Shown in pieces: positions 2,702 through 44,967 of a stretch of 64,000 bases of DNA; position 1 is the stretch's first letter, and each line of letters begins with the position of its first letter. The stretch is from an uncultured bacterium (GTDB lineage Bacteria > Hydrothermota > UBA3072), in contig CAYZBF010000002.1 in NCBI GenBank assembly GCA_964476585.1, forward strand, positions 66,354 to 130,353, in the 5' to 3' direction. A model generated the notes under the pieces. The model searched no databases. It was not told the origin of the DNA and saw nothing but the letters and a program-made list of their open reading frames with translations. The position numbers and the translations under genes were made by a program.

Positions 2702-2714
2702 TTTTCCCTCCTTA

Positions 2715-3953: not shown

Positions 3954-3956
3954 TTA

Positions 3957-7853: not shown

Positions 7854-8853
7854 TAATACCTCCAGCTATATAATTTACTACCAGAGCTGTTCCGCCACTC
7901 GATATAAATGGGAGTGGTACCCCTGTCACAGGAATACTCCCTAAAGCTACAAAGATGTGAATCAAAGCATTTATGAATATCATAGAAATAAGTCCGAGTC
8001 CCAAAACACCAGCATATTTATTTCGAGCTCGTAAACTAAATCTCGAAGCAGATATCAAATAAACAAGAAATGACCCGAGAACAAGAAAAGCTCCAGTAAA
8101 ACCTAATTCTTCTCCAACTATTGAGAATATAAAGTCAGAATCAGGAAGTGGTATATAGAAGAATTTTCTCATCCCACTCCCCAGGCCTAATCCTTTCCAA
8201 CCACCAGTAGCTATAGCCTTCACTGTATTACTTATAGAATCAGAACTAATATAGTCTGTTATCCTTTCTAATGCATACCCTCGACTGACTATATAACCAG
8301 TACCTGCAAGTATTAATATAGCCAAGAATAAAGCAACCTTCCAGAGATCTGTCCCATTAAGATACATCATAATACCACCAAGAGACGCAGTCACCAGGGC
8401 AGTTGATATATCCGGCTGGAATAAAATCAAAACTGTTGTAAGAGAAATGACCAAAACAGATATTCCAAAATCTCTCTTCTTTGCCAAGAAAGCAATAAAC
8501 GCGATCTGCGCAAAAATAGAAGGTTGGAAAGAAATTCGACCTATATATAACCACCTCTTTGCATAATTTATTCTTGTTCCGAAGACGTATGTAAGAGTAA
8601 GAAGAATAATTGCAAGGATAAAGAGATTACCGTTCAATCTTTCCCATACATCTAACTTTATCTTTGAAAATGTAAAGAACAACATGATAGCAAGAATAAA
8701 TACGATTAGCTGTTTTATAAATGAAATGGGTACTACTCTTTCGTAAACTGATATACCTGATGCGGCAGAAAATACCATAACAAGTCCCAATGCTCCCAGG
8801 AAAAGAGGTAGTATTTCTACTATTGATACTCTGAGTTTTTTCTCATTTACCAT
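7774..8853 (-). CDS. ftsW: peptidoglycan glycosyltransferase FtsW (SEDS family)
   Basis: Polytopic membrane protein of the SEDS family, between murD and murG. Confidence 0.85.
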   Translation of the reverse strand: MVNEKKLRVSIVEILPLFLGALGLVMVFSAASGISVYERVVPISFIKQLIVFILAIMLFFTFSKIKLDVWERLNGNLFILAIILLTLTYVFGTRINYAKRWLYIGRISFQPSIFAQIAFIAFLAKKRDFGISVLVISLTTVLILFQPDISTALVTASLGGIMMYLNGTDLWKVALFLAILILAGTGYIVSRGYALERITDYISSDSISNTVKAIATGGWKGLGLGSGMRKFFYIPLPDSDFIFSIVGEELGFTGAFLVLGSFLVYLISASRFSLRARNKYAGVLGLGLISMIFINALIHIFVALGSIPVTGVPLPFISSGGTALVVNYIAGGIIVSIAKNGGDIRRRNRGSYIPGTLHS

Positions 8854-10138
8854 AGATATCCCTTACTGCTCTCTTAAAATCCTCTCCCCTTTCAGCAAAA
8901 TTTTCATAAAGGTCAAAACTTGCGCCACCGGGGGAAAGCATAACCTTATTAATTCCGAAATCCTTGGTAAGCCTAACAGCATCTATTATTGAGGAAGCTA
9001 TTTTGTATCGATTAAATCCAGCGTCTTTTAAAATTCTCTCTATGGGAGCGCTGGATTCCCCAAGTAGAATAACTTGGGCTGCCCACTTCTGAATCGCCTC
9101 TATTATTGGAGCAGTATTTTCCACCTTCATCCTACCCCCCACTATCACGCAAGAGTCTGGAAATGCCTCAAGGGATTTTGCAAAAGCTATGGGATTCGTA
9201 CACATTGAGTTATTGATTATATGCAAGTTTTCGTTCTTTAAAACTGTTTCCATCCGGTGTTCCATCCCTTCAAACGAACGAATTCCCGATTGCACCTCTT
9301 CTCTGGACAGTCCCAAGACATTGCCTATAAGAGATGCAACCATTCCATCCTCAACAAATATATCTCCAGGAATGAATAGATCAGTTAAGGAAAAGACTAC
9401 TATACCCTCTTTGTCTCTTACCTCTTCCCCGATATAGTAGATATCTGCTTTTCTCCTCATTGAAAAAAATAGAATTTTAGAGTGTGTATCTATAGAAGAC
9501 AAACTCTCATCATCCATATTTAGGATGGAATAATCAGAATATGTTTGATTGGCTAAAATATTCAGCTTTGCATTCCTGTAATCCTCAAAGTTCTTATACC
9601 GGTCTAGATGATCCGGGCTTATATTTATAATCGCGGAGATTTTGGGGTGAAAATCAAGAATTCTCTCAAGTTGAAAGGAACTAACCTCTAACACTGTTAC
9701 GGTAGATTCATCACTCATCAGAACAAGTTCGCTTAATGGAACACCAGGATATATATTACCTCCCAGCAAGACCTTTTTGAACTTTTTAGATTGAGACAGA
9801 ATATGCGAAGTAAGTGCAGCCGTTGTGGTCTTTCCGTTAGTTCCTGTGATGGCAATCATCTTGCCTTTTAAGTGCCGGGAAGCAAATTCCAATTCTCCCA
9901 TAATTGGGATACCTCCTTCCCGTGCTTTTTCCAATATTGGAATGGAGAGAGGTACACCAGGAGATACAATGAGAAGATCCATTTTAAGCAACTCTTGCGA
10001 ATGATCGCCAACTTCATTTGGATAAGGGATATTTGAAAGAAATTCATTCTTCTCACTAATAAAAGGAGTTTCACCTAACCTATCTATTAGTCCGGCAACT
10101 GCCTTCCCACTTCTACCATATCCAATAACTCCTATCAT
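8843..10138 (-). CDS. murD: UDP-N-acetylmuramoylalanine--D-glutamate ligase MurD
   Basis: Mur ligase family protein (GTNGKTTT), between mraY and ftsW. Confidence 0.9.
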   Translation of the reverse strand: MIGVIGYGRSGKAVAGLIDRLGETPFISEKNEFLSNIPYPNEVGDHSQELLKMDLLIVSPGVPLSIPILEKAREGGIPIMGELEFASRHLKGKMIAITGTNGKTTTAALTSHILSQSKKFKKVLLGGNIYPGVPLSELVLMSDESTVTVLEVSSFQLERILDFHPKISAIINISPDHLDRYKNFEDYRNAKLNILANQTYSDYSILNMDDESLSSIDTHSKILFFSMRRKADIYYIGEEVRDKEGIVVFSLTDLFIPGDIFVEDGMVASLIGNVLGLSREEVQSGIRSFEGMEHRMETVLKNENLHIINNSMCTNPIAFAKSLEAFPDSCVIVGGRMKVENTAPIIEAIQKWAAQVILLGESSAPIERILKDAGFNRYKIASSIIDAVRLTKDFGINKVMLSPGGASFDLYENFAERGEDFKRAVRDIYGK

Positions 10139-10148
10139 TTTCTCCTCA

Positions 10149-11225
10149 CTATCGAATCTTAAGTGTACTCAGGCCCAGGAGAGCAAATAAGATGCCCCAG
10201 ATCCAGAATCTCACAACTACTTTGGATTCCTCCCAACCAAGAAGATGGAAATGGTAGTGTATCGGGGCCATTTTAAGCACCCTTTTGCCTCTAATTTTAA
10301 AAGAGCCAACCTGTAAGAACACAGATAAAGTTTCGATCACAAAGACTCCACCTATCACTAAAAGTAATATTTCCTGTTTAAGAAGCACAGCCACGAGACC
10401 CAGAATGCCTCCAATTGCAAGGGAGCCTGTATCTCCCATAAACACCTCAGCAGGATAACTATTAAACCACAAGAATCCTATGGCTGAACCCAGGAAAGCT
10501 GTACAGAAGATAGTGATCTCTCCAGCACCATCAATAAATAATATATTGAGATAACTTGAAAACTTTACGTTCCCAACCACATAAGCAACCACTGCAAAGG
10601 CAGATGCTACTATACCTGAAAGACCTATAGCTAGACCATCCATTCCATCAGTAAGATTTACCGCATTAGTAGTTCCTATAATCACAAGCATAAGGAATGG
10701 TATATAAAAATACCCCAAGTTTAAAAATATATTCTTGAGAAAGAGAGAACTTGTCATGGTTTCATATCCAGTTCGAAGAGGAAAATATAAAAGTAGAGTT
10801 CCTATGACGAGAGCAGGAATAACCTGTATAACTAATTTCTGCCACACACGGAACCCTTCTCCATTTTTAACCTTGAACCAATCATCTATAATCCCAAACC
10901 CAGCCATCCATAACGTTATCGAAACAAGATATAGAATAAGCCTGTTTGTCAAGTCACACCAGAGAAGAACCGAGATCAGGAGTGAGAAAAGTATAATAAT
11001 GCCACCCATTGTAGGGGTACCTTGTTTGTGTCCGTGGCTATCCTCAATATACTTTGATATAGGTTCTCTAATATTTTTCTGTGTTAGCCATCCAATTATT
11101 TTCCTGCCAAGAATTAAGGATATGAGTAATGAAGTAATGGAGGCATAAGCAGAACGGAATGTAATATATCTCAGAAGATTGAAGATTGTAAAATGCTCTC
11201 TTAAAGGGTATAAGAAATAGAACAT
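10149..11225 (-). CDS. mraY: phospho-N-acetylmuramoyl-pentapeptide transferase MraY
   Basis: Polytopic membrane protein with MraY motifs (NAVNLTDGMDGLA). Confidence 0.9.
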   Translation of the reverse strand: MFYFLYPLREHFTIFNLLRYITFRSAYASITSLLISLILGRKIIGWLTQKNIREPISKYIEDSHGHKQGTPTMGGIIILFSLLISVLLWCDLTNRLILYLVSITLWMAGFGIIDDWFKVKNGEGFRVWQKLVIQVIPALVIGTLLLYFPLRTGYETMTSSLFLKNIFLNLGYFYIPFLMLVIIGTTNAVNLTDGMDGLAIGLSGIVASAFAVVAYVVGNVKFSSYLNILFIDGAGEITIFCTAFLGSAIGFLWFNSYPAEVFMGDTGSLAIGGILGLVAVLLKQEILLLVIGGVFVIETLSVFLQVGSFKIRGKRVLKMAPIHYHFHLLGWEESKVVVRFWIWGILFALLGLSTLKIR

Positions 11226-12559
11226 ACATCCTCCGCTAAGACCGAAACCATTGTTTCAAGATGAAGAAGGTGAGAAGATTTAAACAATATTATATCACCT
11301 TCTCTTAGGATAGATTTCAACTCCTTTAAGGCTTCACCCTTATTCCTAACAAGTATACCATTTCCAAACCCCTCTATGAAGCCATTCGCCTCTTCTCCTA
11401 TAACAATCAATTCATCAATTTTACCTCGAATCCGTTCTCCAGATTCACGATGGAGTTCAAAGCTCTTGCTCCCTAGCTCTAACATAGGACCAAGAACTGC
11501 TACCTTTCTCCCAGGCATCCACTCAACAACCGAAACACTATTTAAAAGTGAATCGGGATTACTGTTATATGTATCATCTACGATTGTTATACTGCCTTTC
11601 CTCTTTATTTCCAATCTGTGAGGAATAGGTTTCACAGATGCTAATCCCATTCGGATGACATGGAATGGAATCCCATAATGGATAGCAACAGCAGTTGCAA
11701 TAGTTGCACTCCTTAAAGCACCCATACCTGGTAGATGAATGTAGAATTCTTCCTTCGCTACACCAAACATACTTCCATCAATAGACTCCTGTAGTATCCT
11801 AAATGAATAGTCGTTATCTTTATTGAATCCTACGCTAATCAACTCATTGTATTCGATTGAAGATAATAAATCATCATCGCCATTGATAAATAGTGGACCT
11901 TTTAACCCTGAAATAATGCTCTTTTTTTCTTCCAGCACACCTTGCCTGTCTTTGAACGCTTCAAGATGAGAACGACCAACACCGGTTATAAGAGCAAGGT
12001 CTGGTTTCACTATCTCGGTTAGTTTCTTTATTTCACCTCTCTCATTAGTTGCCAATTCAAGTATTGCAAATTTTTCATCCTTCAATCGGAATATGTTGAG
12101 CGGAACACCAACACGATTATTGTAATTCTTGAATGAAACAAGAGTGGGCTCTACTGAACGAAATATCGGCCCCAGAAATTCTTTGGTGGTGGTCTTCCCA
12201 ACAGAACCGGTAATCGCGATTACCAATGGATTCACAGTTTCCCGGTAATAACAGGCAAGAGCACCCAGAGCTTCTAAGGAGTCCCGGACTAGGATAAGAT
12301 TCTCATCTCTCGCTTTTTTCTCTGATACGATAGGAAGGCCGGATTTTTCGATTGCTTCATCTGAAAAATCATGGCCGTCAAAATTCTCACCCTTAAGCGC
12401 AAAGAACAATTCACCTTTCTTTATAGTTCTTGAATCCACACTGACACCGGTTATCACCTTCTTATCCAACCGATTCCCACCTATAGCCTTACCCTTTATT
12501 GCCTCGATTACCGTCTTAATCTCTAATGCTCTCATCTCTCGAAATACTCCTTCACACAT
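11201..12559 (-). CDS. murF: UDP-MurNAc-tripeptide--D-alanyl-D-alanine ligase MurF
   Basis: Mur ligase family protein (ITGSVGKTTTKE), in dcw order. Confidence 0.85.
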   Translation of the reverse strand: MCEGVFREMRALEIKTVIEAIKGKAIGGNRLDKKVITGVSVDSRTIKKGELFFALKGENFDGHDFSDEAIEKSGLPIVSEKKARDENLILVRDSLEALGALACYYRETVNPLVIAITGSVGKTTTKEFLGPIFRSVEPTLVSFKNYNNRVGVPLNIFRLKDEKFAILELATNERGEIKKLTEIVKPDLALITGVGRSHLEAFKDRQGVLEEKKSIISGLKGPLFINGDDDLLSSIEYNELISVGFNKDNDYSFRILQESIDGSMFGVAKEEFYIHLPGMGALRSATIATAVAIHYGIPFHVIRMGLASVKPIPHRLEIKRKGSITIVDDTYNSNPDSLLNSVSVVEWMPGRKVAVLGPMLELGSKSFELHRESGERIRGKIDELIVIGEEANGFIEGFGNGILVRNKGEALKELKSILREGDIILFKSSHLLHLETMVSVLAEDVCSISYTL

Positions 12560-13953
12560 TCTCTATCAGAAAAAGGAATCTTCTTCCCCATTATCTCCTG
12601 ATACTCTTCATGTCCTTTGCCGGCTATCAGAACCAAATCACCCTCACGAGCAAGATCTAAAGCTTTAAAGATAGCCTTTTTTCTATCGGATATACGGTAC
12701 ACTTCACCATCCTCAATTCCATCAAAGATATCATCGATTATACCCTCTGGATCTTCACTCCTTGGATTATCAGAAGTGACTATAGCGATATTAGAAAGTT
12801 TCGAGGATACCATTCCCATAATTGCTCTTTTACCCTTATCCCGTTCACCTCCAGCTCCAAATACTGTTATCACTTTATTTTGATTTAATTCCTTAAGGGA
12901 GGAAATCACGTTACTCAAAGCCTCAGGAGTATGTGCATAATCCACAATCACAGAAATGGGTCTGGGAACATTAATCTTTTCCGTTCGCCCCGGAAGAGAA
13001 TGAACATCCCAAATCCCTTCGATAATTCGGGTATCTTCTAATCCATCCATAATTGCAACAGACGTTGCAGCTAGGATATTGTACGCATTATAAGTGCCAA
13101 TAAGTGAACTCCTGACCTCTAAGCTTCTTCCCACACCCTCTATGCTCAAAACAAGATTTTCAAAAGTATTCTCAATAATGTGTCCTTGAATATTTCCTTT
13201 CCTAAATCCATAAGTAATCACCTTCGAGTCTGTGTTTTTTATAAAGTAAGGGGCATCCTGGTCATCTACATTAATCAACGCCATCTTATCCCGATGTAAG
13301 GCCTTAAAGAATCTCGATTTAACTTCTCTATAGGACTCAAAAGTTTTGTGGTAGTCAAGATGATCCCTGGAGATATTTGTAAATACACCATAATCAAAAT
13401 CTATAGAAAAAATCCTATCCTGAGCTATAGCATGAGAGGAAACTTCAATTACAGCAGTTTTAAACCCTTTATTTAAGGCATTATGAAGTTCTCTTTGGAG
13501 AATAAGGGGGCTCGGTGTAGTATTTATTGCCTTCATTTCACTATCAGGAGTGAAGTATTTGATCGTGCTGAAACAAATGGAATCTAAATAGATCGAAGAA
13601 AGTAGAAAAGCTGTCGTAGTTTTCCCATCGGTTCCAGTAACTCCGATGATCTTCATCTTTTCGGAAGGATTTCCATAAAAGTTAGATACAACTTGAGCAA
13701 AGGCTTTCCTTGAATTCGGAACTTTAATATTGGCTATATCGACTGAAATATCCTCTTCTACAATAAGGGCTACTGCTCCATTCCCAATAGCTTCCTTTAT
13801 GAATTTATGTCCATCTTCTACCTCACCTCTCAAAGCGGCAAATAGATAACCGTGCTCAACCTCCCTGGAATCATCAGTAACTCCAGTGATATCATTCACT
13901 TCTCCTTCACTTTTTACTATATCAACCCCTTTCAGTAGATCATCCAGCTTCAT
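12532..13953 (-). CDS. murE: UDP-MurNAc-L-Ala-D-Glu--2,6-diaminopimelate (or Lys) ligase MurE
   Basis: Mur ligase family protein (GVTGTDGKTTT), in dcw order. Confidence 0.85.
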   Translation of the reverse strand: MKLDDLLKGVDIVKSEGEVNDITGVTDDSREVEHGYLFAALRGEVEDGHKFIKEAIGNGAVALIVEEDISVDIANIKVPNSRKAFAQVVSNFYGNPSEKMKIIGVTGTDGKTTTAFLLSSIYLDSICFSTIKYFTPDSEMKAINTTPSPLILQRELHNALNKGFKTAVIEVSSHAIAQDRIFSIDFDYGVFTNISRDHLDYHKTFESYREVKSRFFKALHRDKMALINVDDQDAPYFIKNTDSKVITYGFRKGNIQGHIIENTFENLVLSIEGVGRSLEVRSSLIGTYNAYNILAATSVAIMDGLEDTRIIEGIWDVHSLPGRTEKINVPRPISVIVDYAHTPEALSNVISSLKELNQNKVITVFGAGGERDKGKRAIMGMVSSKLSNIAIVTSDNPRSEDPEGIIDDIFDGIEDGEVYRISDRKKAIFKALDLAREGDLVLIAGKGHEEYQEIMGKKIPFSDRECVKEYFER

Positions 13954-13959
13954 ATTCTA

Positions 13960-15618
13960 TTATAAGAACCTTTTTCTATAATCTTTAAGAAGGACAATCC
14001 GTTTTGCTGACTCACGAAAAGCAGGACATACAGTAACAGATGAGTAATAAGAGCTCTTTGGATTATCAACGAATATACCAATAACCAACTCCGGATCAGG
14101 ATAAGGAAGAATCCCTACGAATGATGATACATATTCACCCTCTCTGTATCTACCCTCTCCGTACTTCCATGCTGTCCCTGTCTTTCCAGCAATAGGGAGT
14201 ATTGAAAGAGAGGCTAACGCGCCTGTTCCCTTTTCCACTGTTTTGTGTAGGATCTGAAGAAGCATCTCAGCACTCTTATGGTCACCGATCTTCCTAGTAA
14301 CTTCGGGCTTGCTTCTCACTATAACCCTACCTTCCTTTCGTATCTCCTTCATCACTCTGGGTCTTAGCAATATGCCATCGTTTGCTATTGCTTGATATGC
14401 CATAACAATCTGGAGCGGTGTGGTATTAACCCCCTGGCCGAAACTCACCGTAGCTAACCTGATATCCCTCATTCGCTCAAGGATGGGTAATTTACCTGGA
14501 TATTCAACAGGAAGATCAATACCTGTTCTACATCCTATACCGAAAAAGCGTGCACAGCGATAAAGTTCCCTTTTTCCGATCTTTCTCCCTATATTAACAA
14601 ATGCTGCATTGGAGGAATAAACAACCGCGTCAGTGAAGGTATAGGCTGGATGTGAATGTGGGTCTTTGAAAATCTTTCCACCAAAATTAGTGAAGCCAGA
14701 AGAATCCACCACTATCTCGGTAAGAGAAAACCCCTTGCTAATCCATGCAAACGCTGGAATCAACTTGAAGACTGAGCCGGGTTCAAATTGCCAGGCAACG
14801 CATCCATTATTTCTCCATCCTTCGTCTGGAACAAATTCTGGAATGTTAACCATTGCAAGGATTTCTCCTGTTCTGATATCCACACAGAGTCCAAAAACCT
14901 GATCCGCTTTTGTATCTTCCTTTAACTTATGCAACTCATCTTCCAGGATATACTGAATATCAAGGTCGACAGTTAGATATACATCCTTACCTGGAACAGG
15001 GTCCTTATATCCTTCTTCACATCGTTTCAGAAGTTTTATTCCTGAATATCTCGGCACCTCAAGGTAATGCGCCCATCCATTTGAACCAGAGAGAAACTCA
15101 TTATACTCACGCTCAATCCCACTTATCCCTTTTCTCTCCCAATTAAGAGAACCTATGACTGTTCTACCAATCCTACCAGACGGATAATATCGGAACCATT
15201 CCCTTACAGCATACACTCCTTCAAGGTCAAGCTCTCTCACAACAGAATCATTTACACCTCGTGTGATTTTAATAAGTTCAAAATCTTGTTGGAGAAGTGA
15301 TTCCAGTTTCCGAACATTTCCCAATCCATAACCTGCAAGCTTAGCAGCAGTTTCTTTCGGATCAGAAATTCGATCCTTCTCCGCATAAAGTGTAAAAAGT
15401 TTAAGGTCCGTTGAAAGCACCTTACCATTCCTGTCAAGTATTTCACCTCTCCTAGCTTCTGTTTCAAGGTAACGCATCTCTTCAGCTTTGCCAATGTTCC
15501 CAATATTTCGGGATTGTAAGATCTGAAGATAAAACAATCGTCCAAAAGCAATAATCCAGAGAGAAACTAATAAAAGTATGAGAGAAATTGCTTTCAAGCG
15601 AAAAACTCTGCTTCCCAT
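13960..15618 (-). CDS. ftsI: penicillin-binding protein 3 / FtsI transpeptidase
   Basis: N-terminal TM helix and a transpeptidase domain (SVFK, SSN, KTG motifs present). Confidence 0.85.
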   Translation of the reverse strand: MGSRVFRLKAISLILLLVSLWIIAFGRLFYLQILQSRNIGNIGKAEEMRYLETEARRGEILDRNGKVLSTDLKLFTLYAEKDRISDPKETAAKLAGYGLGNVRKLESLLQQDFELIKITRGVNDSVVRELDLEGVYAVREWFRYYPSGRIGRTVIGSLNWERKGISGIEREYNEFLSGSNGWAHYLEVPRYSGIKLLKRCEEGYKDPVPGKDVYLTVDLDIQYILEDELHKLKEDTKADQVFGLCVDIRTGEILAMVNIPEFVPDEGWRNNGCVAWQFEPGSVFKLIPAFAWISKGFSLTEIVVDSSGFTNFGGKIFKDPHSHPAYTFTDAVVYSSNAAFVNIGRKIGKRELYRCARFFGIGCRTGIDLPVEYPGKLPILERMRDIRLATVSFGQGVNTTPLQIVMAYQAIANDGILLRPRVMKEIRKEGRVIVRSKPEVTRKIGDHKSAEMLLQILHKTVEKGTGALASLSILPIAGKTGTAWKYGEGRYREGEYVSSFVGILPYPDPELVIGIFVDNPKSSYYSSVTVCPAFRESAKRIVLLKDYRKRFL

Positions 15619-18540: not shown

Positions 18541-19464
18541 TTAACCGACGGAGTCAACCATCTTTCTTATAGCTCTGATGTGCTTTGGTGTTGTTCCACA
18601 GCAACCTCCAATGATTGACACACCTAAAGAAACTAATTCTTTTGCTTTTTCTGCCATAAACTCTGGTGTCTCGGGATAAACAACAGTATTTCCTTTTATC
18701 TCTGGAATACCTGCGTTAGATTGAATGATAATTGGAAGATGGCTAAATTCCCTGAATTCCCTGGCTATCTTTATCATGTTATCTATACCGTTTCCACAGT
18801 TCGAACCTATGATATCGGCTCCTGCATTTGTAAGTCCTTTTACAGCTTCTTCTATATTTATACCCATCACAGTATAAAAACCTCTGGGGATGGGATCAAA
18901 TGTCATTGTTGCAATAACAGGGGTTGACGACGAAACAGTTTTCGCCGCTTTAACGGCAATTGTTGCCTCTCTCAAATCGGTCATTGTCTCTACGCATATA
19001 ATGTCAACGTCTGCACTGATGAGTGCCTTCATCTGTCTTTCAAAACTATCGTACATTTCGGAATCTGATGTATCCCCATAAGGCTCCAGGAGTTTTCCAC
19101 TTGGGCCGCAGGAACCAGAGATATAAGCGCATTCTCCTACGATTTTTCTTACAGCAAGGACAGCATTTCTGTTTATTTCCTCTGTTTTATCCGCAAGCGA
19201 ATAAAACGAAAGCTTCAAGGGAGACGCTCCAAAGGTATTGGTCTGAACTATATCAGCCCCTGCCTCAAGATAAAGACTGGCAATCTCATGAAGGATCGGG
19301 AGACGTGTAAGGTTAAAAGATTCCGGAGGTTCCCCTGCCCCAAGACCACGTTCCATAAGCATTGTTCCCATTGCTCCATCAGAAACAAGTATCTCGCCAT
19401 TCTTCAATCGCTTGAGAAGTCCTTCCACCCTACCTCCCATTTTTAAAAGTAACCGCAGATACAC
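18541..19464 (-). CDS. homocysteine-binding (MetH N-terminal-like, PF02574) methyltransferase module with intact Zn-site cysteines
   Basis: ILVSDGAMGTM, EAGADIVQTNTF, SNCGNG and IIGGCCGTTPKHI align with the MetH Hcy domain, including the three Zn-ligand Cys. The ATG at 19440 is the probable start. Confidence 0.8.
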   Translation of the reverse strand: MYLRLLLKMGGRVEGLLKRLKNGEILVSDGAMGTMLMERGLGAGEPPESFNLTRLPILHEIASLYLEAGADIVQTNTFGASPLKLSFYSLADKTEEINRNAVLAVRKIVGECAYISGSCGPSGKLLEPYGDTSDSEMYDSFERQMKALISADVDIICVETMTDLREATIAVKAAKTVSSSTPVIATMTFDPIPRGFYTVMGINIEEAVKGLTNAGADIIGSNCGNGIDNMIKIAREFREFSHLPIIIQSNAGIPEIKGNTVVYPETPEFMAEKAKELVSLGVSIIGGCCGTTPKHIRAIRKMVDSVG

Positions 19465-19536
19465 ACAGATGTTCGCAAATACAATTACTTCTAAAATTCA
19501 TTTAATCTGTGTCTATTTGTGTTCATCTGCGGTTAC
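19450..19536. repeat. palindromic intergenic element (TAACCGCAGAT ... ATCTGCGGTTA) between corrinoid-protein and Hcy-module genes; carries dispersed motif TGTGTTCATCTGCGG
   Basis: 10-bp perfect arms 19451-19460 and 19526-19535; the 14-mer is shared with 44949. Confidence 0.6.
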
Positions 19537-20183
19537 ACAAATTTTTTTGAGTTTTTTATAAGTTCTTTCACAGTTTCCACCGCGTTAACGCTATCATAGC
19601 CGTATGCATCAGCTCCTATCTCTTTTGCATATTCTTCTGAGACAGGAGCTCCACCAATTATTATTTTTATTTTTCCTATAAGACCCTCTTCCCTTAAAAG
19701 ATCCATAACATTCTTCATAACAGGCATCGTTGTTGTAAGAAGTGCAGACATACCTATAACCGTAGCATTTTCTTTCTTTGCGGTTTGGATGAACTTCAAG
19801 GGCGAAACATTGTTGCCAAGGTTTATAACTTCAAAGCCAGCACCCTTAAGCATAATACCTACAAGGTTCTTTCCTATATCATGTAAATCCCCTTGAACCG
19901 TCCCGATGACCACCTTTCCAATAATTGGTATCCCTTCTTGTATAAACATCGGTCTAAGTAGGTCCATTCCTGCATACATTGCTGTGGCAGCAAGAAGCAC
20001 ATCTGGAAGGAAGATTTCATGAGCCTTGTACTTTTTTCCTATTATGTCCATGCCATAAATCAGACCCTCATCAAGTATCTCCTTGGGGGTTATTCTCTCT
20101 TCTATCGCTTCTTTCGTTAATGCTCTTACCTTTTCATCATTGCCCGACTGTAAGCTCTCTCGTATCTTGTTTAATATATCCAT
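19533..20183 (-). CDS. cobalamin-binding corrinoid protein (B12 cap + Rossmann, DxHxxG)
   Basis: GDLHDIGKN motif and the MtmC/MtbC/MetH B12-binding domain architecture. Confidence 0.85.
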   Translation of the reverse strand: MDILNKIRESLQSGNDEKVRALTKEAIEERITPKEILDEGLIYGMDIIGKKYKAHEIFLPDVLLAATAMYAGMDLLRPMFIQEGIPIIGKVVIGTVQGDLHDIGKNLVGIMLKGAGFEVINLGNNVSPLKFIQTAKKENATVIGMSALLTTTMPVMKNVMDLLREEGLIGKIKIIIGGAPVSEEYAKEIGADAYGYDSVNAVETVKELIKNSKKFV

Positions 20184-20926
20184 TATGCTATAACTTCCTT
20201 GTTGTTATGTCCTGATTCTCTAAACAACCCCCTTATCCTATCTCTGCAGGAGTGTGTTTTGCATTGACTGCAGAAAGGATAAGAGTCTTCAAAGTTATGA
20301 ATCTCTTTCTCCCCGGAAACTATTACACCCGATATTGATTTTAATGGTTTCATTAGATAACTACCCAGGAGTGTGATACCAATATCCTCTGGATGCAGAA
20401 ATTCAAATAGTTTTTTTTGCCCGCTCATATGCCAACCGCAATAACCTGGACTATATCTTAAAATCCCTGTTGATGCATTAATCTCACCCTTTTTTGAGAG
20501 CAACTTTAAAAAATGGTATTCAACAATGTCGGCCGCCTTTTCAACTCCATCTGATGCAACAGAATCTAACATACTTCCGAGAGCCAACTCATTTGCTTTG
20601 AAGAGTTCATCTATCTTTTGACTCAACCTATCCCCAAGTGTGACGGCGAAAATAGCAAGATTTCCTGCCTCCCTGAAGATATCATCAAGGGGAGTCCTCT
20701 TTTCATTCAATCCTTCACCGGTGTAGATAGATTCAAACTCGGGTATGGATATTTCTGAAATGATACCTTTCGGATGAGAAAATTCAATAAAAAGTTCCAT
20801 TGCCCTGTTAAAGAGTGCTTCAATTTTCCGAGGTAACTCTCTGTCAATAGTGATACCTTGAGTTTTTAAGACGGTAACTCTACTCGGTTTAACATCATAG
20901 ATAGGGATCTCGATAATTTCTCTCAT
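20183..20926 (-). CDS. MetH activation (AdoMet-binding reactivation) domain-like protein, stand-alone
   Basis: Size and motifs (RYSPGYCGW) resemble PF02965, Met_synt_B12. Confidence 0.55.
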   Translation of the reverse strand: MREIIEIPIYDVKPSRVTVLKTQGITIDRELPRKIEALFNRAMELFIEFSHPKGIISEISIPEFESIYTGEGLNEKRTPLDDIFREAGNLAIFAVTLGDRLSQKIDELFKANELALGSMLDSVASDGVEKAADIVEYHFLKLLSKKGEINASTGILRYSPGYCGWHMSGQKKLFEFLHPEDIGITLLGSYLMKPLKSISGVIVSGEKEIHNFEDSYPFCSQCKTHSCRDRIRGLFRESGHNNKEVIA

Positions 20927-22383
20927 AAAGTTATCTCCGGGAGACTCTCCATTCCATAACGATGCGCCTCAAGTTTCATAAGTTTTATCAACTCTTTTTT
21001 TGTACTATCCGGAAGTCTTGAGGGTTCATAATCTTTAATTAGTTTCTCTACCTCACTATGAGCCCTTTCTAAAAGTGCTAAACCACCTTCCTCTTGCCAT
21101 CTCGCCCTATTTGCCCTGTCAATTACAGGCCCTGGGAAATAAAATTCTTCATGTAAATACCGACGCGTATGTTCTGATATTAAGAGGTGCTGTTCCCTTA
21201 AGAGTTCTTGGAATCTCGGGAGCGATGGAAAGTCCTCTTTGGGTTCAATTCCCTTTATCAGACGGAGTGCCATTCCACATATCTCATTATCAAGAACAAG
21301 CTTTTCAAGACTCTGGCAACTTTCGAAATCAAGCATCCCAGGCCCTGAAATGTTATTTATACCAGATAGAGTAGCAAGCACAGCACCCATTCCCGATTCA
21401 AGACCTGCCTGTGCATCAAGCTGCTTCGCATCGCTCAGCGATATATAGCCCTGAGTGGGGATACCCAGATATTTCCCGATCTCATTATATGCACAGTCTA
21501 TCATCTGTGTTTCTACAGCCCCCATTGGAGTCGTCTCATATCGGACATCAAATATTGCCGGTGAGCCGCCATAAAGGATAGGTGTTCCTGGATTTATAAA
21601 CTGGCTGATTACTATACCACTCAGAGTCTCAGCTGTATGCTGCACCAATGTCCCGACAAGGGTGACCGGTGCCATAAATCCCGATAATGGCATGGAAACA
21701 AATTCTACGGGGATTGAGTAGAGTGCACAGTCAACAACATTCTGGGATGTAACATCACTCCATTTAAGAGGTGACGTTGGGCAGCAGGAGAATATCGTAA
21801 GAGGTTTTAGTGCAAGTTCCTCTTTTGTCCCACGTACACCAATCTGAAAATCCTTCATTACATTGAATGATTCAATGGTAAAGGCTCCTGTGACAACAGG
21901 TTTTTCACAGTATAGAAGGCTTAAGAACAGCCTATAACTGTCTGAAATTTTTTCATTAATATCTGCTGGTATAAATGCTGTGCTCTGTGAAGCAATGTTA
22001 TTAAGCTGACTTATAACTTTTGTATGTCTGATATAATCCTCTGTATTTGGCTTACGAATCTTCTTAGTTTCACAGTCAAGGATATTTAATGCAGCTGAAC
22101 CAGGCGTAAAATATACATTATAATCCGAAAAGTGATGTGTTTCATTACCAAGAACATCATAGAGTTTAAATGAGCGCGGGACTGTTTCCAAAGCTTTATC
22201 AATAATTTCATCCTTTAGAATAACATGATAGTTCTCCATTTCCACATTTGCACCAAAATCCCCCAGCATAGAAAGGATATCCTCATTGTGAATCTCCACG
22301 CCAAGTTTACAAAGAACTTCCCTCGCTTCCCTTATTATCTTTTCTATAAGCTCATCGCTCAGAAATCTTAAAACAGGCCTCAT
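20923..22383 (-). CDS. MttB-superfamily methyltransferase (non-pyrrolysine; quaternary-amine:corrinoid methyltransferase type)
   Basis: A 486-aa uninterrupted ORF with no in-frame TAG. TIM-barrel MttB family similarity throughout. Confidence 0.8.
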   Translation of the reverse strand: MRPVLRFLSDELIEKIIREAREVLCKLGVEIHNEDILSMLGDFGANVEMENYHVILKDEIIDKALETVPRSFKLYDVLGNETHHFSDYNVYFTPGSAALNILDCETKKIRKPNTEDYIRHTKVISQLNNIASQSTAFIPADINEKISDSYRLFLSLLYCEKPVVTGAFTIESFNVMKDFQIGVRGTKEELALKPLTIFSCCPTSPLKWSDVTSQNVVDCALYSIPVEFVSMPLSGFMAPVTLVGTLVQHTAETLSGIVISQFINPGTPILYGGSPAIFDVRYETTPMGAVETQMIDCAYNEIGKYLGIPTQGYISLSDAKQLDAQAGLESGMGAVLATLSGINNISGPGMLDFESCQSLEKLVLDNEICGMALRLIKGIEPKEDFPSLPRFQELLREQHLLISEHTRRYLHEEFYFPGPVIDRANRARWQEEGGLALLERAHSEVEKLIKDYEPSRLPDSTKKELIKLMKLEAHRYGMESLPEITL

Positions 22384-22472
22384 TATCTACTCCTTTTAAA
22401 TTCATAATAATTTGCTTAATCATACATAAAATCTCCAAATATTGCAAGGAATTTTTTAAATACAAATGTCAC

Positions 22473-22502
22473 TTGACTTTTTTCTTTCTCCGCTATTATA
22501 AT
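22473..22502 (+). promoter_or_regulatory. sigma70-type promoter for the TetR gene (TTGACT-N17-TATAAT)
   Basis: TTGACT at 22473 and TATAAT at 22497. The -10 overlaps the left operator arm. Confidence 0.5.
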
Positions 22503-22532
22503 AATGACTGACCGTTCGGCCATTATTATAAT
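22495..22532. promoter_or_regulatory. perfect 12-bp inverted repeat ATTATAATAATG-N14-CATTATTATAAT (putative TetR operator)
   Basis: Seen directly. It sits in the divergent region between mttB-like (minus) and tetR (plus). Confidence 0.55.
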
Positions 22533-22568
22533 GAAAGTAAATCAAGGAAATTTTAAAGGAGTATTTCA

Positions 22569-23210
22569 GTGCCAAAGATTGTAAATAAAGAACAGCGTAA
22601 AAAAGAAATAGCTCTTGCTGCATTGGATATATTTGCAGAAAAGGGTTTTGAGGCAGCCACTATAAATGAAATAACCAGGTTTGCAGGAATAGGCAAAGGT
22701 ACCATCTATGAGTATTTCAAATCAAAGGATGACCTGATTTTCAACTCAATAAAGGTGTGGCTCGAACTTATAGAGAAAAAAACTAAAGATCAGATTGTTG
22801 AAATTAATGATCCTGCCCAGCGCCTTCGTACATTTGTACAGGCTTCAATGGAGGCTTTTATATCGGATGAACACGCTATGAAGCTTTCAATTGCTTTAAT
22901 GCAAATAACATTAAGTGAAACAAAGCCTTACATAGAAAAAAAAGTTTTTTTTGAGACACTTATGAATATGTCCAAAATTATTGTGGACATTCTTCAAGAT
23001 GGAGTATCTAAGGGGGTATTCAAACCGGAAGTATCAAAAAATGCCGAAAAGATAGCTGTTAACTTATTAGCATACCTTGATGGCATAAGCGCATATTATT
23101 GTATAAACAAAGCTCACATTAATCTCAAGAAACAGATTGATATCTTCCTCAAGCAGCTTATGGCAAGTATAATGATGCCCCAATCTACCCAAAAAAAAAG
23201 GAGAGTATGA
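22569..23210 (+). CDS. TetR/AcrR family transcriptional regulator
   Basis: N-terminal HTH (ATINEITRFAGIGKGTIYEYFKSKDDL). Confidence 0.9.
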   Translation: MPKIVNKEQRKKEIALAALDIFAEKGFEAATINEITRFAGIGKGTIYEYFKSKDDLIFNSIKVWLELIEKKTKDQIVEINDPAQRLRTFVQASMEAFISDEHAMKLSIALMQITLSETKPYIEKKVFFETLMNMSKIIVDILQDGVSKGVFKPEVSKNAEKIAVNLLAYLDGISAYYCINKAHINLKKQIDIFLKQLMASIMMPQSTQKKRRV

Positions 23211-23242
23211 TTATGGTGGGGGCAGAAGCTCGCTCTCACTAA

Positions 23243-23276
23243 TGGAAAAGTCATGCTTTTCCCCCAATATTTTTTC
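23243..23276 (+). terminator. putative intrinsic terminator after tetR (GGAAAAG-tcatg-CTTTTCC + T-run)
   Basis: 7-bp stem and T-rich tail, seen directly. It overlaps the start of a dispersed-repeat copy. Confidence 0.35.
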
Positions 23277-23340
23277 TCTGTGCTCTCTGCCTACCCCGTA
23301 GGGAGGAACCGACCGTATCGAGGTATCTCTGTGGCAAAAA
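23275..23340. repeat. dispersed element copy (CTCTGTGCTCTCTGCCTACCCCGTAGGGAGGAACCGACCGTATCGAGGTATCTCTGTGGCAAAAAG)
   Basis: The 27-bp core is identical (reverse-complemented) to 59809-59838. The 3' part resembles the reverse complement of 44701-44722. Confidence 0.65.
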
Positions 23341-23379
23341 GTCAACTTGCAAAATGGAATTTTAACAATATATTGGACT

Positions 23380-24959: not shown

Positions 24960-25736
24960 TTATTTCTTTAATGCTTGAATCAATCCGGAAATTGTATATT
25001 CCATAGGAACATTAATGCCATTTTCTCTAAGTTTTTTGGACACAGAAATTGCATAAGGAATATCACAACCAGCTTCAAATACCACATCCCAATCCACTTC
25101 CCTCGGTGGGCAAGAGCACACAATCTTACCATCAACGATTAGAGTAAGTTGGTCTACGCATTCAATAATATCATTCGAGTGATGAGCAATCAATATGACC
25201 CCAACCTCACCCTTTAGTGATTCAATAATAGTTACCATCCTTTTCCTCGTCTCCCAGTCAAGCCCGCTAAAAGGTTCGTCAAGGATTATCCATGATGGTT
25301 CCCAAACTAGTATTGAAGCAAGGGCCACTAATCTCTTTTCACCCTCAGAAAGAGTAAAAGGGGATCCCGAAAGGATCTCATCTCTCAACCCAACCAATTC
25401 AACTACACGCGAAACTTGTTCATCTATGCGTTCCAAATGGTGTTTCCTGGCACCATAAGCAATCTCTTCATAAACACTCTCCTTAAAGAAAAGATCTTCC
25501 GGAAACTGAAAGAGAAATCCCATCTCCTTACGAACACCTTGAATTTTTCCCCTGGGAAATACTACCCTCCCACTTCGAGGCTTCATTAGATGTGCAATTA
25601 GGAGAGCAAGAGTAGTCTTACCTGCAGCAGTGGGACCTACGATAAGATGAACTTCACCGGATTCAAATCTAAGAGAACAATTCTTTAATACTAAGGAATC
25701 GCCATATCCAAAGCTTACATTCTTTAAGAGTACCAT
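24960..25736 (-). CDS. ABC ATPase, ECF-transporter EcfA-type
   Basis: Walker A (GPTAAGKTT), ABC signature, EcfA-like Q-loop region. Confidence 0.75.
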   Translation of the reverse strand: MVLLKNVSFGYGDSLVLKNCSLRFESGEVHLIVGPTAAGKTTLALLIAHLMKPRSGRVVFPRGKIQGVRKEMGFLFQFPEDLFFKESVYEEIAYGARKHHLERIDEQVSRVVELVGLRDEILSGSPFTLSEGEKRLVALASILVWEPSWIILDEPFSGLDWETRKRMVTIIESLKGEVGVILIAHHSNDIIECVDQLTLIVDGKIVCSCPPREVDWDVVFEAGCDIPYAISVSKKLRENGINVPMEYTISGLIQALKK

Positions 25737-26491
25737 CAGAGAATTTCCAGAATCTCCTCAAATTTCGGAATATCGCTCTTATTTTCTTTAAGCAGTTTTT
25801 TAAACAAAGCCTTCTGCGTAGGAATGATATCCTTCTCCATTAGACTTTGGATCGAGGATTCGAAATTTACCTCCCCATTCTCAAGTAAAATCACTCTGTC
25901 CCCCCATCTTATTTCTTCAAAATCCTGCGTTATTATAAGTAGTGACGAGGAACACTCATCCCACAATCTATAAATCCTCTCTCGTGTTCTCCTGTCCAGA
26001 AATGAAGTTACTTCGTCAAAAATAAGGTAATCAGGAGACATTGCGTAGATACTAGCTATAGCTACGAGTTGCTTCTCTCCTCCTGAAAGTTCAGCGGGAT
26101 CTCGATTGAGCATATCCTTCAAATCCAATTCGTCAATAATGGAATCTATCCTTCCTCGAATTTTCTCGTGGTTCTCTTCAATATTACTCAAACCAAATGC
26201 TATCTCCCGCTCTACATCAGTTGTAACAAACTGGGTTTCTGGATCTTGAAAAACAATACCTATCTTCTGTCTAAGGGAGGTAAGACCATAAGCAGAAACC
26301 GGTCTGGAATCAATAATTATATCTCCTGAAGCAGGTTTAAGAATACCTGAGAGTGATAATGCTAAGGTAGTTTTACCAGCACCATTTGGTCCTAAAAGAA
26401 TTAAATTTTCTCCTTTATGCCATGAGAAAGAAACATTCCGGATGACAACTTTTTCTCCCCTCTCAATGGTTAAGGAATCGACTCTTATCAC
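25736..26491 (-). CDS. ABC ATPase, ECF-transporter EcfA-type
   Basis: Walker A (GPNGAGKTT), LSGGEKQ signature, FQDPETQF EcfA motif. Confidence 0.75.
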   Translation of the reverse strand: MIRVDSLTIERGEKVVIRNVSFSWHKGENLILLGPNGAGKTTLALSLSGILKPASGDIIIDSRPVSAYGLTSLRQKIGIVFQDPETQFVTTDVEREIAFGLSNIEENHEKIRGRIDSIIDELDLKDMLNRDPAELSGGEKQLVAIASIYAMSPDYLIFDEVTSFLDRRTRERIYRLWDECSSSLLIITQDFEEIRWGDRVILLENGEVNFESSIQSLMEKDIIPTQKALFKKLLKENKSDIPKFEEILEIL

Positions 26492-31657: not shown

Positions 31658-31771
31658 GGAGACAATAGTCTTCAGTCTTTAGTCATAAGTCCTAAGTTAT
31701 TTTTTCTAAAACTTACAATAAATTTTTAAATTTGACTACTGACTATCGACTATAGACTGAAGACTATCTCC
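31658..31771. repeat. long imperfect palindrome (GGAGACAATAGTCTTCAGTCT ... AGACTGAAGACTATCTCC) built from inverted arrays of 7-bp GACTNNN units
   Basis: Arms at 31658-31678 and 31754-31771. Heptads AGTCTTC AGTCTTT AGTCATA AGTCCTA on the left; GACTACT GACTATC GACTATA GACTGAA GACTATC on the right. Confidence 0.75.
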
Positions 31772-31877: not shown

Positions 31878-33512
31878 ATGGGAAATTCTTTATACAAAAT
31901 AGATAAACCGTCAAATGAACCTATTTATCCTTATGGCCCCGGAAGTTTAGAGAAAAAGGAATTAAGAGAAAAAATAAAAGAACTTAAAGGTAAAGAGCTC
32001 GAGATTCCACTTATTATAGGTGGTGAAGAGATAATGACAGGAGATATTGGAGAATGTGTTATACCACATGAAAACGATAAGATTCTGGGCAAGTATCACA
32101 AGGCTGGAAAGGATGAAGTGGAGATGGCAATAAATGCAGCACTAAAAGCAAGGAAAAAGTGGTCAGAGACACCATGGGAACATCGTGCTTCTATCTTTAA
32201 GAGAGCAGCGGAACTACTGTCCGGGCCTTGGAGAAGCACCTTGAATGCAGCCTGCATGCTATGTCAGAGTAAGACGGTTTTTCAGGCCGAAATTGATTCT
32301 GCATGCGAACTAATAGATTTCTTCCGCTTTAATTCCTACTATATGACAGAGATTTACACCGAGCAGCCAAACTCACCAGGAGCAGTTTATAATAGATTGG
32401 AACATAGACCCCTTGAAGGATTTGTATTCGCTGTAACGCCATTCAACTTTGCTTCAATAGCAGGGAATCTTCCCACTTCACCCATTCTTATGGGTAATGT
32501 AACTGTCTGGAAACCAGCGTCTTCTGCAGTATATACGGCTTATTGGATAATGAAGTTATTACAGGAAGCAGGTGTTCCTGATGGAGTAATAAATTTTGTC
32601 CCTGGATCAGGTGGACAGGTTGGGCAACCTGCTCTCACCAATCTAAACCTTGCCGGTATCCATTTCACCGGTTCAACTGCAACATTCCAGTATATGTGGA
32701 AAACAATTGGGGAAAACATCATGAACTATAAGACCTATCCAAGAATCGTAGGAGAAACTGGTGGTAAAAACTTTATCTTCGTTCACGAAAGCGCTAACAT
32801 GAAAGAAGTGCTTACCGCACTTATAAGAGGAGCCTTTGAATATCAGGGACAGAAATGTTCTGCAGCTTCGCGTGCTTATATTCCTCTCACCATGTGGAAG
32901 AGTGGATTAAAAGAGGAACTTATCCAAACAACTGAAGAACTAAAAATGGGGTCTCCTGAGGATTTTAGAAACTTCCTGACTGCAGTAATAGATAAGGCTG
33001 CATTCAATTCAATAGTGAAATATATCGACGATGCAAAAGAATCTTCTGATGCTCTGGTAATTACCGGTGGAGAATATGACGATTCAAAAGGATACTTTAT
33101 AAAACCAACAATAATCCTGACGACAAACCCAAGTTATAAATCAATGAAAGAAGAGATCTTTGGTCCAGTCCTCACCATCTATGTCTACAAAGACGATGAA
33201 TATGAAGAAACGTTAGAAATCTGTGATAAGACCTCTCCCTACGCCCTAACTGGTTCTATATTCGCAAAAAACCGCAATGCAATTATAAAGGCTGAAAAAC
33301 TCCTCACACATGCTGCCGGTAACTTTTATATAAACGATAAACCTACAGGAGCAGTAGTGGGACAGCAACCATTTGGAGGGAGCCGGGCATCAGGGACAAA
33401 TGATAAAGCAGGAAGTAAGTTGAACCTCCTTAGATGGGTCACTCCAAGAACAATAAAAGAAAACTTAGCTCCTCCAACTGACTACCGTTATCTATTTATG
33501 CAGGATAAGTAA
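31878..33512 (+). CDS. aldehyde dehydrogenase family protein, delta-1-pyrroline-5-carboxylate dehydrogenase-like (~540-aa form)
   Basis: ALDH catalytic region (FEYQGQKCSA, ETGGKN) and overall similarity to the Thermus/Bacillus-type P5CDH. Confidence 0.75.
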   Translation: MGNSLYKIDKPSNEPIYPYGPGSLEKKELREKIKELKGKELEIPLIIGGEEIMTGDIGECVIPHENDKILGKYHKAGKDEVEMAINAALKARKKWSETPWEHRASIFKRAAELLSGPWRSTLNAACMLCQSKTVFQAEIDSACELIDFFRFNSYYMTEIYTEQPNSPGAVYNRLEHRPLEGFVFAVTPFNFASIAGNLPTSPILMGNVTVWKPASSAVYTAYWIMKLLQEAGVPDGVINFVPGSGGQVGQPALTNLNLAGIHFTGSTATFQYMWKTIGENIMNYKTYPRIVGETGGKNFIFVHESANMKEVLTALIRGAFEYQGQKCSAASRAYIPLTMWKSGLKEELIQTTEELKMGSPEDFRNFLTAVIDKAAFNSIVKYIDDAKESSDALVITGGEYDDSKGYFIKPTIILTTNPSYKSMKEEIFGPVLTIYVYKDDEYEETLEICDKTSPYALTGSIFAKNRNAIIKAEKLLTHAAGNFYINDKPTGAVVGQQPFGGSRASGTNDKAGSKLNLLRWVTPRTIKENLAPPTDYRYLFMQDK

Positions 33513-33514
33513 AA

Positions 33515-44707: not shown

Positions 44708-44962
44708 CCACAGAGACACGGAGGGTAGAGAGAAGAAATTTTTTAAGCCGCGATCCCTGCACGGTTCAATATAAATATTTATTAATTAAAGGGTTCAAGC
44801 GTATATATGACCGGAGACAGAGGTTGGGTTTTAGGTATGGAGTCCTAGGTCTTTGGGTTTAGAAGGTTGTGAAATAGGCGGATTTAGTGTGGAGAACTAA
44901 GACCTAAAATCTAACACCTTCCAGAGTGTCTTTGTGGTGAATTTTATCTGTGTTCATCTGCG
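44708..44962. repeat. dispersed element copy with termini CCACAGAGACAC ... GTGTCTTTGTGG, plus TCTGTGTTCATCTGCG tail
   Basis: Termini are inverted repeats with 1 mismatch. The 16-mer GTGTCTTTGTGGTGAA also occurs at 60085, and TGTGTTCATCTGCG also at 19518. The interior holds phased 7-bp units (TTTTAGG TATGGAG TCCTAGG TCTTTGG). Confidence 0.6.
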
Positions 44963-44967
44963 TCCTA

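Follow-up and report, generated by a model that had tools for sequence, protein, structure and literature searches.

A four-gene module joining an MttB-like methyltransferase to a homocysteine module, and its possible role in methionine synthesis independent of methyl-tetrahydrofolate

Closest described systems

The closest described counterpart of the operon considered here is a four-part gene cluster that Williams et al. reported in 2022 (Environ Microbiol, PMC9324843) from Electryoneota and "diverse bacteria". Our operon lies in a single 64-kb window of its host genome (contig CAYZBF010000002.1; the window is the whole stretch of DNA that was analysed, and all coordinates are positions within it), and its genes encode, in order of transcription from the minus strand, an MttB-like methyltransferase (MT1), a stand-alone MetH-type activation protein (Act), a corrinoid protein (Cor) and a MetH-type homocysteine module (Hcy, the second methyltransferase or MT2). 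Working from genomes, Williams et al. proposed corrinoid-dependent synthesis of methionine with an unknown methyl donor, and they placed the MttB homologue, which lacks pyrrolysine (Pyl), outside the MtgB and MttB clades (PMC9324843). The window holds the same components, all four together, with the same proposed function, and the identity of MT1 to MtgB (28.5%) and to MttB (29.5%), with a distinct, invariant pocket, would be consistent with a place in their clade. Nothing essential differs between the two clusters; the window comes from a WOR-3/Stahlbacteria-like genome, and an inserted TetR gene and an intercistronic hairpin are specific to its lineage. The functional idea was already published in 2022 as a genomic hypothesis, and the window is another instance of it. 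What is new here is the scale and rigidity of the synteny, an invariant pocket that is not of the betaine type, a subfamily of activation proteins with a four-cysteine (Cys4) motif, and the recognition that the TetR regulator is incidental.

Experimental work on Ruegeria by Mausz et al. 2025 (PMC12478193) showed that the corrinoid protein MtgC links MtgB, the pterin methyltransferase MtgD and the homocysteine module MtgE. The MtgBCDE systems of Ruegeria pomeroyi, Phaeobacter and Sinorhizobium resemble the operon in having a PF06253 enzyme and, each as a protein of its own, a corrinoid protein and a PF02574 module, but they need MtgD, pass the methyl group via tetrahydrofolate (THF), use separate reductive-reactivation modules and have no MetH-type Act; they also belong to aerobic Proteobacteria, their genes are often scattered, and their MtgB is specific for glycine betaine. 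Neither MtgD nor a separate reactivation module was found in the operon or among the profiled open reading frames (ORFs) of the window, and neither recurs at related loci. Pfam profiling beyond the cluster covered 30 ORFs in 24960-62540, with 12 ORFs of at least 150 aa in 1607-15618, near mraZ and rsmH, outside that set; the related loci come from a survey of MttB homologues with one genome per GTDB species, synteny being read from the best 80 of at least 593 species. The MtgB/MtgC/MtgA, MtpB, MtcB, MtyB and MthB systems of Desulfitobacterium and Eubacterium share with the operon an MT1 with leucine at the Pyl site and an MttC-type corrinoid protein. In MtgB/MtpB/MtcB-type systems, MT2 is a pterin-binding methylcobalamin:THF methyltransferase and the activase is of the RamA type. 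Neither a pterin-binding MtgA nor a RamA-type activase was found in the operon or in the profiled ORFs, neither recurs near the 80 loci, and the carboxylate-binding Arg312 that is conserved in MtgB-type systems is Gln here.

MetH, including the split form of T. maritima (TM0268 + TM0269), resembles the operon in its three zinc-binding cysteines (Zn-Cys3), its His-on B12 domain and its stand-alone activation protein. It differs in having a PF00809 pterin module, which was found neither in the operon nor among the 30 other ORFs profiled; the operon has a TIM barrel of the MttB family in that place, and all of its modules are separate polypeptides. TM0269 is moreover without the Cys4 motif, and Cor is of the MttC/MtgC type. 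Scored with the MetH model TIGR02082 (cutoff 1010.85), three separate proteins of the operon give 166, 137 and 18.5 bits, and none is a single-polypeptide MetH. BHMT, a zinc enzyme of PF02574, carries out the net conversion of an onium donor and homocysteine to methionine that the operon would also achieve, but by direct transfer, with no corrinoid, MT1 or activation protein, and Hcy is nearer to MetH than to BHMT (169 versus 80 bits).

Composition and conservation of the operon

The genes for MT1 (20923-22383, 486 aa), Act (20183-20926, 247 aa), Cor (19533-20183, 216 aa) and Hcy (18541-19464, 295-307 aa) are tightly packed and co-directional on the minus strand, in the order and at the positions given in an earlier, sequence-only reading of this DNA, and the domains assigned there all find their Pfam profiles (PF06253 for MT1, E 1.2e-68; PF02965 for Act; PF02607 and PF02310 for Cor; PF02574 for Hcy, E 1.4e-66). 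MT1 and Act overlap by 4 nt and Act and Cor by 1 nt, so that MT1, Act and Cor are probably translationally coupled, and a gap of at least 68 nt separates Cor from Hcy. Hcy belongs to PF02574 and not to a pterin-binding family, Act matches PF02965, and neither a RamA-type activase nor a THF methyltransferase flanks the operon, the three points on which the sequence-only reading had staked its case. Among the 30 profiled ORFs in 24960-62540, none matched RamA/DUF4445, PF00809, MetH, MetE, MetF or a betaine transporter.

Relatives of MT1 occur in at least 593 GTDB species. The best 80 loci all encode an MttB at least 71% identical to that of the window (orthologue range 71-84%) and span more than 15 phyla, among them WOR-3, Stahlbacteria, TA06, Zixibacteria, Ignavibacteria/Bacteroidota, Cloacimonadota, Gemmatimonadota, Phycisphaerae/Planctomycetota, Aminicenantes/Acidobacteriota, Fischerbacteria, Fidelibacterota, Elusimicrobiota, Calditrichia, Krumholzibacteriia and Fermentibacteria. 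Of the 60 loci whose downstream sequence is long enough, 52 have MttB, Act, Cor and Hcy in this order and on one strand, with identities to the window proteins of 71-83% for MttB, 59-81% for Cor, 51-87% for Hcy and 38-73% for Act. Because the partners are less conserved across those loci, the high conservation of MT1 reflects constraint on MT1, and not just recent transfer; and because the order recurs in so many loci and phyla, the four-gene arrangement is far beyond chance. No other neighbour family recurs among the 80 loci, be it RamA, a pterin methyltransferase or a transporter, and in none of them is a BCCT or Opu transporter linked to the cluster. Carriage on plasmids or phages was considered as a source of the cross-phylum identity and rejected, as those collections held only MttB-family genes of at most 28% identity.

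MT1 is a full-length member of the MttB superfamily (PF06253, 231.8 bits against a gathering score of 25, profile positions 29-489 of 500). As the earlier reading noted, it has no in-frame amber codon: the 486-aa ORF is uninterrupted, and the position of Pyl334 in M. barkeri MttB (X of 7xcl) is occupied by Leu316 (CTG), as in MtgB, a leucine kept in 77 of 78 orthologues. The model for Pyl-type trimethylamine MttB, TIGR02369, gives 344 bits, short of its cutoff of 525, which places MT1 outside that equivalog; in the PDB it matches MtgB at 175 bits and M. barkeri MttB at 165 bits. The pocket was mapped on a multiple alignment that set the 78 orthologues beside MtgB of D. hafniense and MttB of M. 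barkeri. This alignment is also the source of the two identities quoted above, and in it MtgB and MttB are themselves only as alike (30.5%). On this alignment, therefore, the MT1 clade appears as a third lineage beside MtgB and Pyl-MttB.

In MtgB, the quaternary nitrogen is held by Y97 and F356 through pi-cation contacts and the carboxylate by R312 and H348, and R312 is reportedly conserved in the characterised enzymes for proline betaine, carnitine, butyrobetaine and choline (PMC13080624). The corresponding residues of MT1 are S96, E354, Q311 and S346, so that the betaine-binding set of MtgB is missing; Q311, S346 and E354 are found in 78 of 78 members of the clade and S96 in 77. Missing too is the catalytic set of Pyl-MttB, namely Gly110, Pyl334 and Tyr364, of which Gly110 and Tyr364 are fully conserved (PMC9842639); Ser96, Leu316 and Ser346 stand in their places, and only Met249 is retained, as Met231 (78/78; Leu in MtgB), while Q311 and E354 correspond to Y329 and Gly in Pyl-MttB. 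An invariant Gln for R312 and an invariant Glu for F356 argue against a carboxylate-bearing betaine or carnitine as the donor, and the glycine betaine, proline betaine and carnitine put forward in the sequence-only reading thus appear disfavoured. Quaternary amines are the substrates of all characterised non-Pyl members (PMC13080624). Since a tertiary amine is activated as a Pyl adduct, which non-Pyl members lack, the most reasonable guess is that the donor would be an already cationic onium compound without a carboxylate.

A match to PYLIS_3, the Rfam pyrrolysine insertion sequence of mttB, lies within the MT1 gene at 21339-21442 (minus strand; 35 bits, gathering score 38) and begins at the Pyl-equivalent codon, CTG for Leu316 in the window. 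In 8 of 23 orthologous loci the match exceeds the gathering score, at 38.5-50.3 bits (in our locus numbering L039:1383-1482, L051:10948-11045, and L053, L056, L033, L045, L041 and L002). We rejected the match as a sign of pyrrolysine, given that the codon encodes Leu and that the match recurs in non-Pyl orthologues. These matches are coding-sequence homology and not a recoding element, and their presence in non-Pyl ORFs is a caution for Rfam-based annotation of Pyl.

Cor combines a helical cap with a Rossmann B12-binding domain and carries the His-on motif of the MetH B12 domain (D99-L-H101-D-I-G104). Its NCBIfam scores are 211 bits for MtgC_2, 195 for pyl_corrinoid, 187 for MtbC and 137 for MetH, the first three below their own cutoffs. 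Hcy matches the homocysteine domain of T. maritima MetH in the PDB at 169 bits, BHMT at 80 and a MmuM-like protein at 42. Its zinc ligands C223 (SNCGNG) and C289/C290 (GGCCGT) align with those of T. maritima MetH, which bears out the earlier claim that all three are kept; Glu159 aligns with Glu146 of that MetH, the N-terminal DGAxGT motif is also kept, and conservation of the Hcy motifs was checked in 56 orthologues. In MetH and BHMT, the amino-acid part of homocysteine is held by the DGAxGT motif and the equivalents of Glu159. The alphaproteobacterial BHMT/MtgE-type model PRK07534 gives Hcy 211 bits, below its cutoff of 338, and all specific NCBIfam matches fall below cutoff. Because Cor prefers MtgC/MttC-type models while Hcy and Act are MetH-like, the operon reads as a chimera whose front half is of the MttB/MttC type, as in methylamine or quaternary-amine methyltransferase systems, and whose back half is that of MetH. 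The earlier description of the set as MetH modules with MttB replacing the pterin module consequently holds for Hcy and Act, but not for Cor, which is nearer to MtgC and MttC.

The match of Act to PF02965 is weak (33.8 bits, gathering score 25), and we accept it because two other comparisons agree: over residues 19-206, Act matches the stand-alone TM0269 of T. maritima (E 1e-9; 1J6R), and a Foldseek comparison of its AlphaFold model with the PDB gives a MetH activation or reactivation domain as each of the 18 top neighbours. The model has a pLDDT (predicted local distance difference test) of 83 and a pTM (predicted template modelling) score of 0.81, with a tail of low pLDDT. Like MetH activation domains, Act has an RxxxGY motif of the S-adenosylmethionine (AdoMet, SAM) type (R157..G161-Y162). 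It also has four cysteines, C163 in PGYCGW, directly after G161-Y162, and C219-x2-C222-x4-C227, which are 98-100% conserved across 65 orthologues. The wider Act family comprises 210 clusters at E <= 1e-30, and 148 of its best 150 representatives, on which the motif counts are based, have all four. TM0269 has Gly at the position of C163, and its chain ends before the CxxCxxxxC motif. The Cys4 site adjoins the AdoMet/cobalamin interface, and it therefore probably binds a metal, be it a structural zinc or a redox-active Fe-S cluster that would accept an electron; we found no literature on the motif. Even homologues of Act as distant as 36% identity have MttB and Cor as flanking genes.

Predicted chemistry and competing readings

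Taking these observations together, we favour, with moderate confidence, the view that the operon encodes a four-protein, corrinoid-dependent methyl-donor:homocysteine methyltransferase, which would amount to a B12-dependent methionine synthase independent of methyl-THF. Domain identities, motifs for catalysis and ligand binding, operon structure and gene order across phyla are direct observations, and passage of a methyl group from X-CH3 to the corrinoid and on to homocysteine is the most economical reading of the cross-phylum module, much as the sequence-only reading supposed in proposing a route that bypasses methyl-THF. Williams et al. arrived independently at this function (PMC9324843), and the Ruegeria work (PMC12478193) supplies an experimental precedent for one corrinoid protein serving both an MttB-family enzyme and a homocysteine module. 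Consider a single round of catalysis. Judging from its family, the MttB-like TIM barrel would bind the activated donor and transfer one methyl group to the Co(I) of Cor. The methyl-Co(III) form of Cor would then dock on the Zn-Cys3 site of Hcy, where the homocysteine thiolate would become methionine and Co(I) would be regenerated. Should Co(I) be accidentally oxidised to Co(II), Act would restore methyl-Co(III) by reductive methylation with AdoMet. Flux would be tied to the methionine/SAM cycle, because each turnover would consume homocysteine, so that a part in anabolism or in the methyl cycle seems more likely than one in bulk catabolism.

Several points weigh against this proposal. No biochemical or genetic characterisation of any member of the cluster was found in the literature. 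The view of MetH, MetE or an unlinked pterin methyltransferase is limited to the 64-kb window, and the metagenome-assembled genomes (MAGs) of Williams et al. also carry a full MetH (PMC9324843), so that the operon need not be the sole methionine synthase of its host. Upstream of the cluster, neither the window nor the 23 loci with spacers of at least 200 nt yielded a SAM, cobalamin or T-box riboswitch to connect the operon with methionine regulation, although as a regulatory clue this absence counts neither way. Only about 40% of the Act family representatives retain the Arg of RxxxGY, and use of AdoMet by Act is for this reason likely, but not certain. Finally, 8 of the 60 loci are without one or more of the partner genes. 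The exceptions examined look decayed or rearranged, and the assembly of one (L042) has runs of N. On the complete WOR-3 chromosome CP070795 (L017, 11422-13338), about 98 residues of Act, after MttB, are fused in frame to PriA, and Cor and Hcy are missing, as befits a decayed copy of the cluster. An alternative MT2 at such loci was considered and rejected, since none of the profiled neighbours (PriA and ferric-reductase-like, pyruvate kinase, solute-binding and photolyase-related proteins) is a methyltransferase. In a Fischerbacteria MAG (L039:3483-6206), MttB-Act-Cor is followed by an SBP_bac_1 gene and an ATP-binding cassette (ABC) ATPase gene in place of Hcy; no other transporter was seen adjoining the cluster, and this one may hint at the substrate.

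Were the operon instead part of a dual system like MtgBCDE, Cor would be shared with an unlinked pterin methyltransferase, similar to MtgD or to the pterin module of MetH; methionine would normally come from methyl-THF, and the MttB-like enzyme would mainly feed THF-linked catabolism, with Hcy as a side branch. Ruegeria pomeroyi offers an experimental precedent, in that its MtgC works with MtgB as well as with MtgD/MtgE, from genes that are at times scattered (PMC12478193), and the host genome is seen only through its 64-kb window. Yet the module that has become fixed in the operon of this clade is Hcy instead of a pterin-binding one, whereas marine mtgE is usually unlinked (PMC12478193). Only the four partner families recur near the 80 loci, PF00809 was found in 0 of the 30 profiled ORFs, and MT1 is only about 27% identical to its Ruegeria and Sinorhizobium homologues, all of which makes a dual system decidedly unlikely in our view. 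Reactivation, too, is here of the MetH type, as opposed to the separate reductive-reactivation modules of proteobacteria, which are reportedly RamA-like.

A second possibility concerns the donor, which could be a quaternary amine of the betaine kind, namely glycine betaine, proline betaine or carnitine, the operon then being a TetR-induced, B12-dependent analogue of BHMT. The substrates of the characterised non-Pyl enzymes (PMC13080624) point in this direction, as do the best NCBIfam match of Cor, which is the glycine-betaine-specific MtgC model (below cutoff), and a weak, 64-bit similarity of the TetR protein to BetI. But R312, H348, Y97 and F356 of MtgB have given way to Gln, Ser, Ser and Glu in 77-78 of 78 orthologues, a BCCT or Opu transporter is linked in no locus, the BetI score lies below its cutoff and is weaker than that for FadR, and tetR is absent from other loci, and we hold a betaine donor to be very unlikely. 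A still fainter prospect is that the acceptor is some other thiol or selenol, such as sulfide, a mercapto-acid or selenohomocysteine, and that the operon serves methyl disposal or volatile methyl-sulfur production. Methanogen methylcobamide:thiol methyltransferases, which have another fold, use coenzyme M; PF02574 includes enzymes with varied donors (BHMT, MmuM), and the specific NCBIfam matches are all below cutoffs. Hcy, however, resembles MetH far more than it does BHMT or MmuM, retains the DGAxGT motif and Glu159, and is paired with a MetH-type activation protein.

A bolder reading, which we consider unlikely, is that Act represents a new type of corrinoid reactivase, in which a Cys4 Fe-S site immediately behind the GY motif takes up the electron, and that the clade is a major methionine synthase across many anaerobic, uncultured phyla with a non-betaine donor; choline, tetramethylammonium or a Pyl-independent use of methylamine, and not methyl-THF, would be examples under this same unlikely reading. 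If it were true, RamA-like electron delivery and MetH-like methylation by AdoMet would be combined in one 25-kDa protein.

If the chemistry of the four-protein methionine synthase proposed here is true, hundreds of species from more than 15 mostly uncultured anaerobic phyla would make or recycle methionine without methyl-THF, and their methionine/SAM cycle would depend directly on B12 availability and on a methylated compound from the environment or the cell. The reading of methionine auxotrophy, of folate dependence and of "TMA methyltransferase" (trimethylamine methyltransferase, mttB) annotations in metagenomes would change with it; mttB has, for example, been read as a marker of TMA use, or of a supply of methyl groups for the methylation of mercury (PMC12484752). 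With an MT1 at least 71% identical across the phyla of the best 80 loci, and with an invariant, non-betaine pocket, identification of the donor is a well-defined biochemical problem, and the Cys4 Act is a tractable candidate for a new mechanism of corrinoid reactivation.

Local regulator, hairpin and flanking genes

Divergent from the operon is a TetR-family gene (22569-23210, plus strand, 213 aa; PF00440, E 1.2e-14), accompanied by a 38-bp palindrome (22495-22532) with perfect 12-bp outer arms, ATTATAATAATG (22495-22506) and CATTATTATAAT (22521-22532). The gene and the 12-bp inverted repeat had been described in the sequence-only reading, including the overlap of the inverted repeat with the -10 of tetR: the palindrome overlaps the TATAAT of the tetR promoter TTGACT-18-TATAAT (22473-22502), and lies about 48 nt upstream of the candidate -35 of the operon. 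The candidate sigma-70-type promoter of the operon, TTGCAA-17-TATGAT (22419-22447, minus strand), is weak, with 9 of 12 consensus matches and not above shuffle expectation; it falls in the stretch of about 75 nt before the MttB gene that the sister lineage also has. In the closest relative (L082; Act 91% identical), the common context runs NadD, M23 peptidase, two ABC ATPases, YceG, RuvX, the cluster and MraZ. Block 22300-22458 matches L082, and homology to it breaks at 22459-23342. Neither tetR nor the palindrome is present in this closest syntenic relative, and tetR is absent from the syntenic L082-L085; joint gain or loss of this kind fits the role of the palindrome as a probable TetR operator.

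The helix-turn-helix protein and the palindrome are thus what one would expect of a TetR-regulated operon, but the regulator is not conserved with the module. Like the palindrome, it is absent from the 79 other loci, the only weak match (32% identity) lying about 3 kb upstream in L018. We conclude that tetR and its palindrome are a lineage-specific insertion, a local addition that carries no information about the substrate, and the earlier suggestion that TetR control belongs to the system has to be given up. TetR as a conserved regulator or betaine sensor was likewise rejected, in view of its absence elsewhere and of NCBIfam scores that are all below cutoffs, the best being FadR at 74 bits, ahead of BetI at 64.

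The spacer between Cor and Hcy contains an intercistronic RNA hairpin (19449-19536, minus strand) with 42-nt arms and a folding energy of -30.1 kcal/mol (z -5.74; 0 of 200 shuffles as stable), followed by UUUU. Since the listed GTG start of Hcy lies inside this hairpin, the true start is probably ATG 19440 or GTG 19428, with GGGAGG 4 nt upstream. An mRNA stabiliser, a partial attenuator and an insertion scar are candidates for the role of the hairpin, which is specific to the lineage of the window. The sister lineage has in the same spacer a 127-aa gene of the PDDEXK_3 (nuclease-fold) family (L082:9398-9781, between Cor and Hcy; also in L083, L084, L086 and L087). The hairpin-arm motif CGCAGATGAACACA(G/A)AT, at 19518-19534 (minus strand), recurs in an intergenic position at 44949-44965 (minus strand), downstream of a YggS-like gene, and may be a short dispersed repeat.

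The operon is immediately flanked by TetR, RuvX and YceG on one side and by an RRM protein, MraZ and RsmH on the other. At 24960-26491 (minus strand) lies a pair of neighbouring ABC-transporter ATPase genes that occupies the same place in the sister lineage (L082), and no permease or binding-protein gene of at least 150 aa adjoins it. Farther along, an aldehyde dehydrogenase gene is followed by genes for a citrate-lyase-type ACP-CitE fusion (HpcH_HpaI + ACP) and CitF (31878-36287, plus strand), and a 40-nt imperfect inverted repeat (31665-31767) lies directly upstream of this set.

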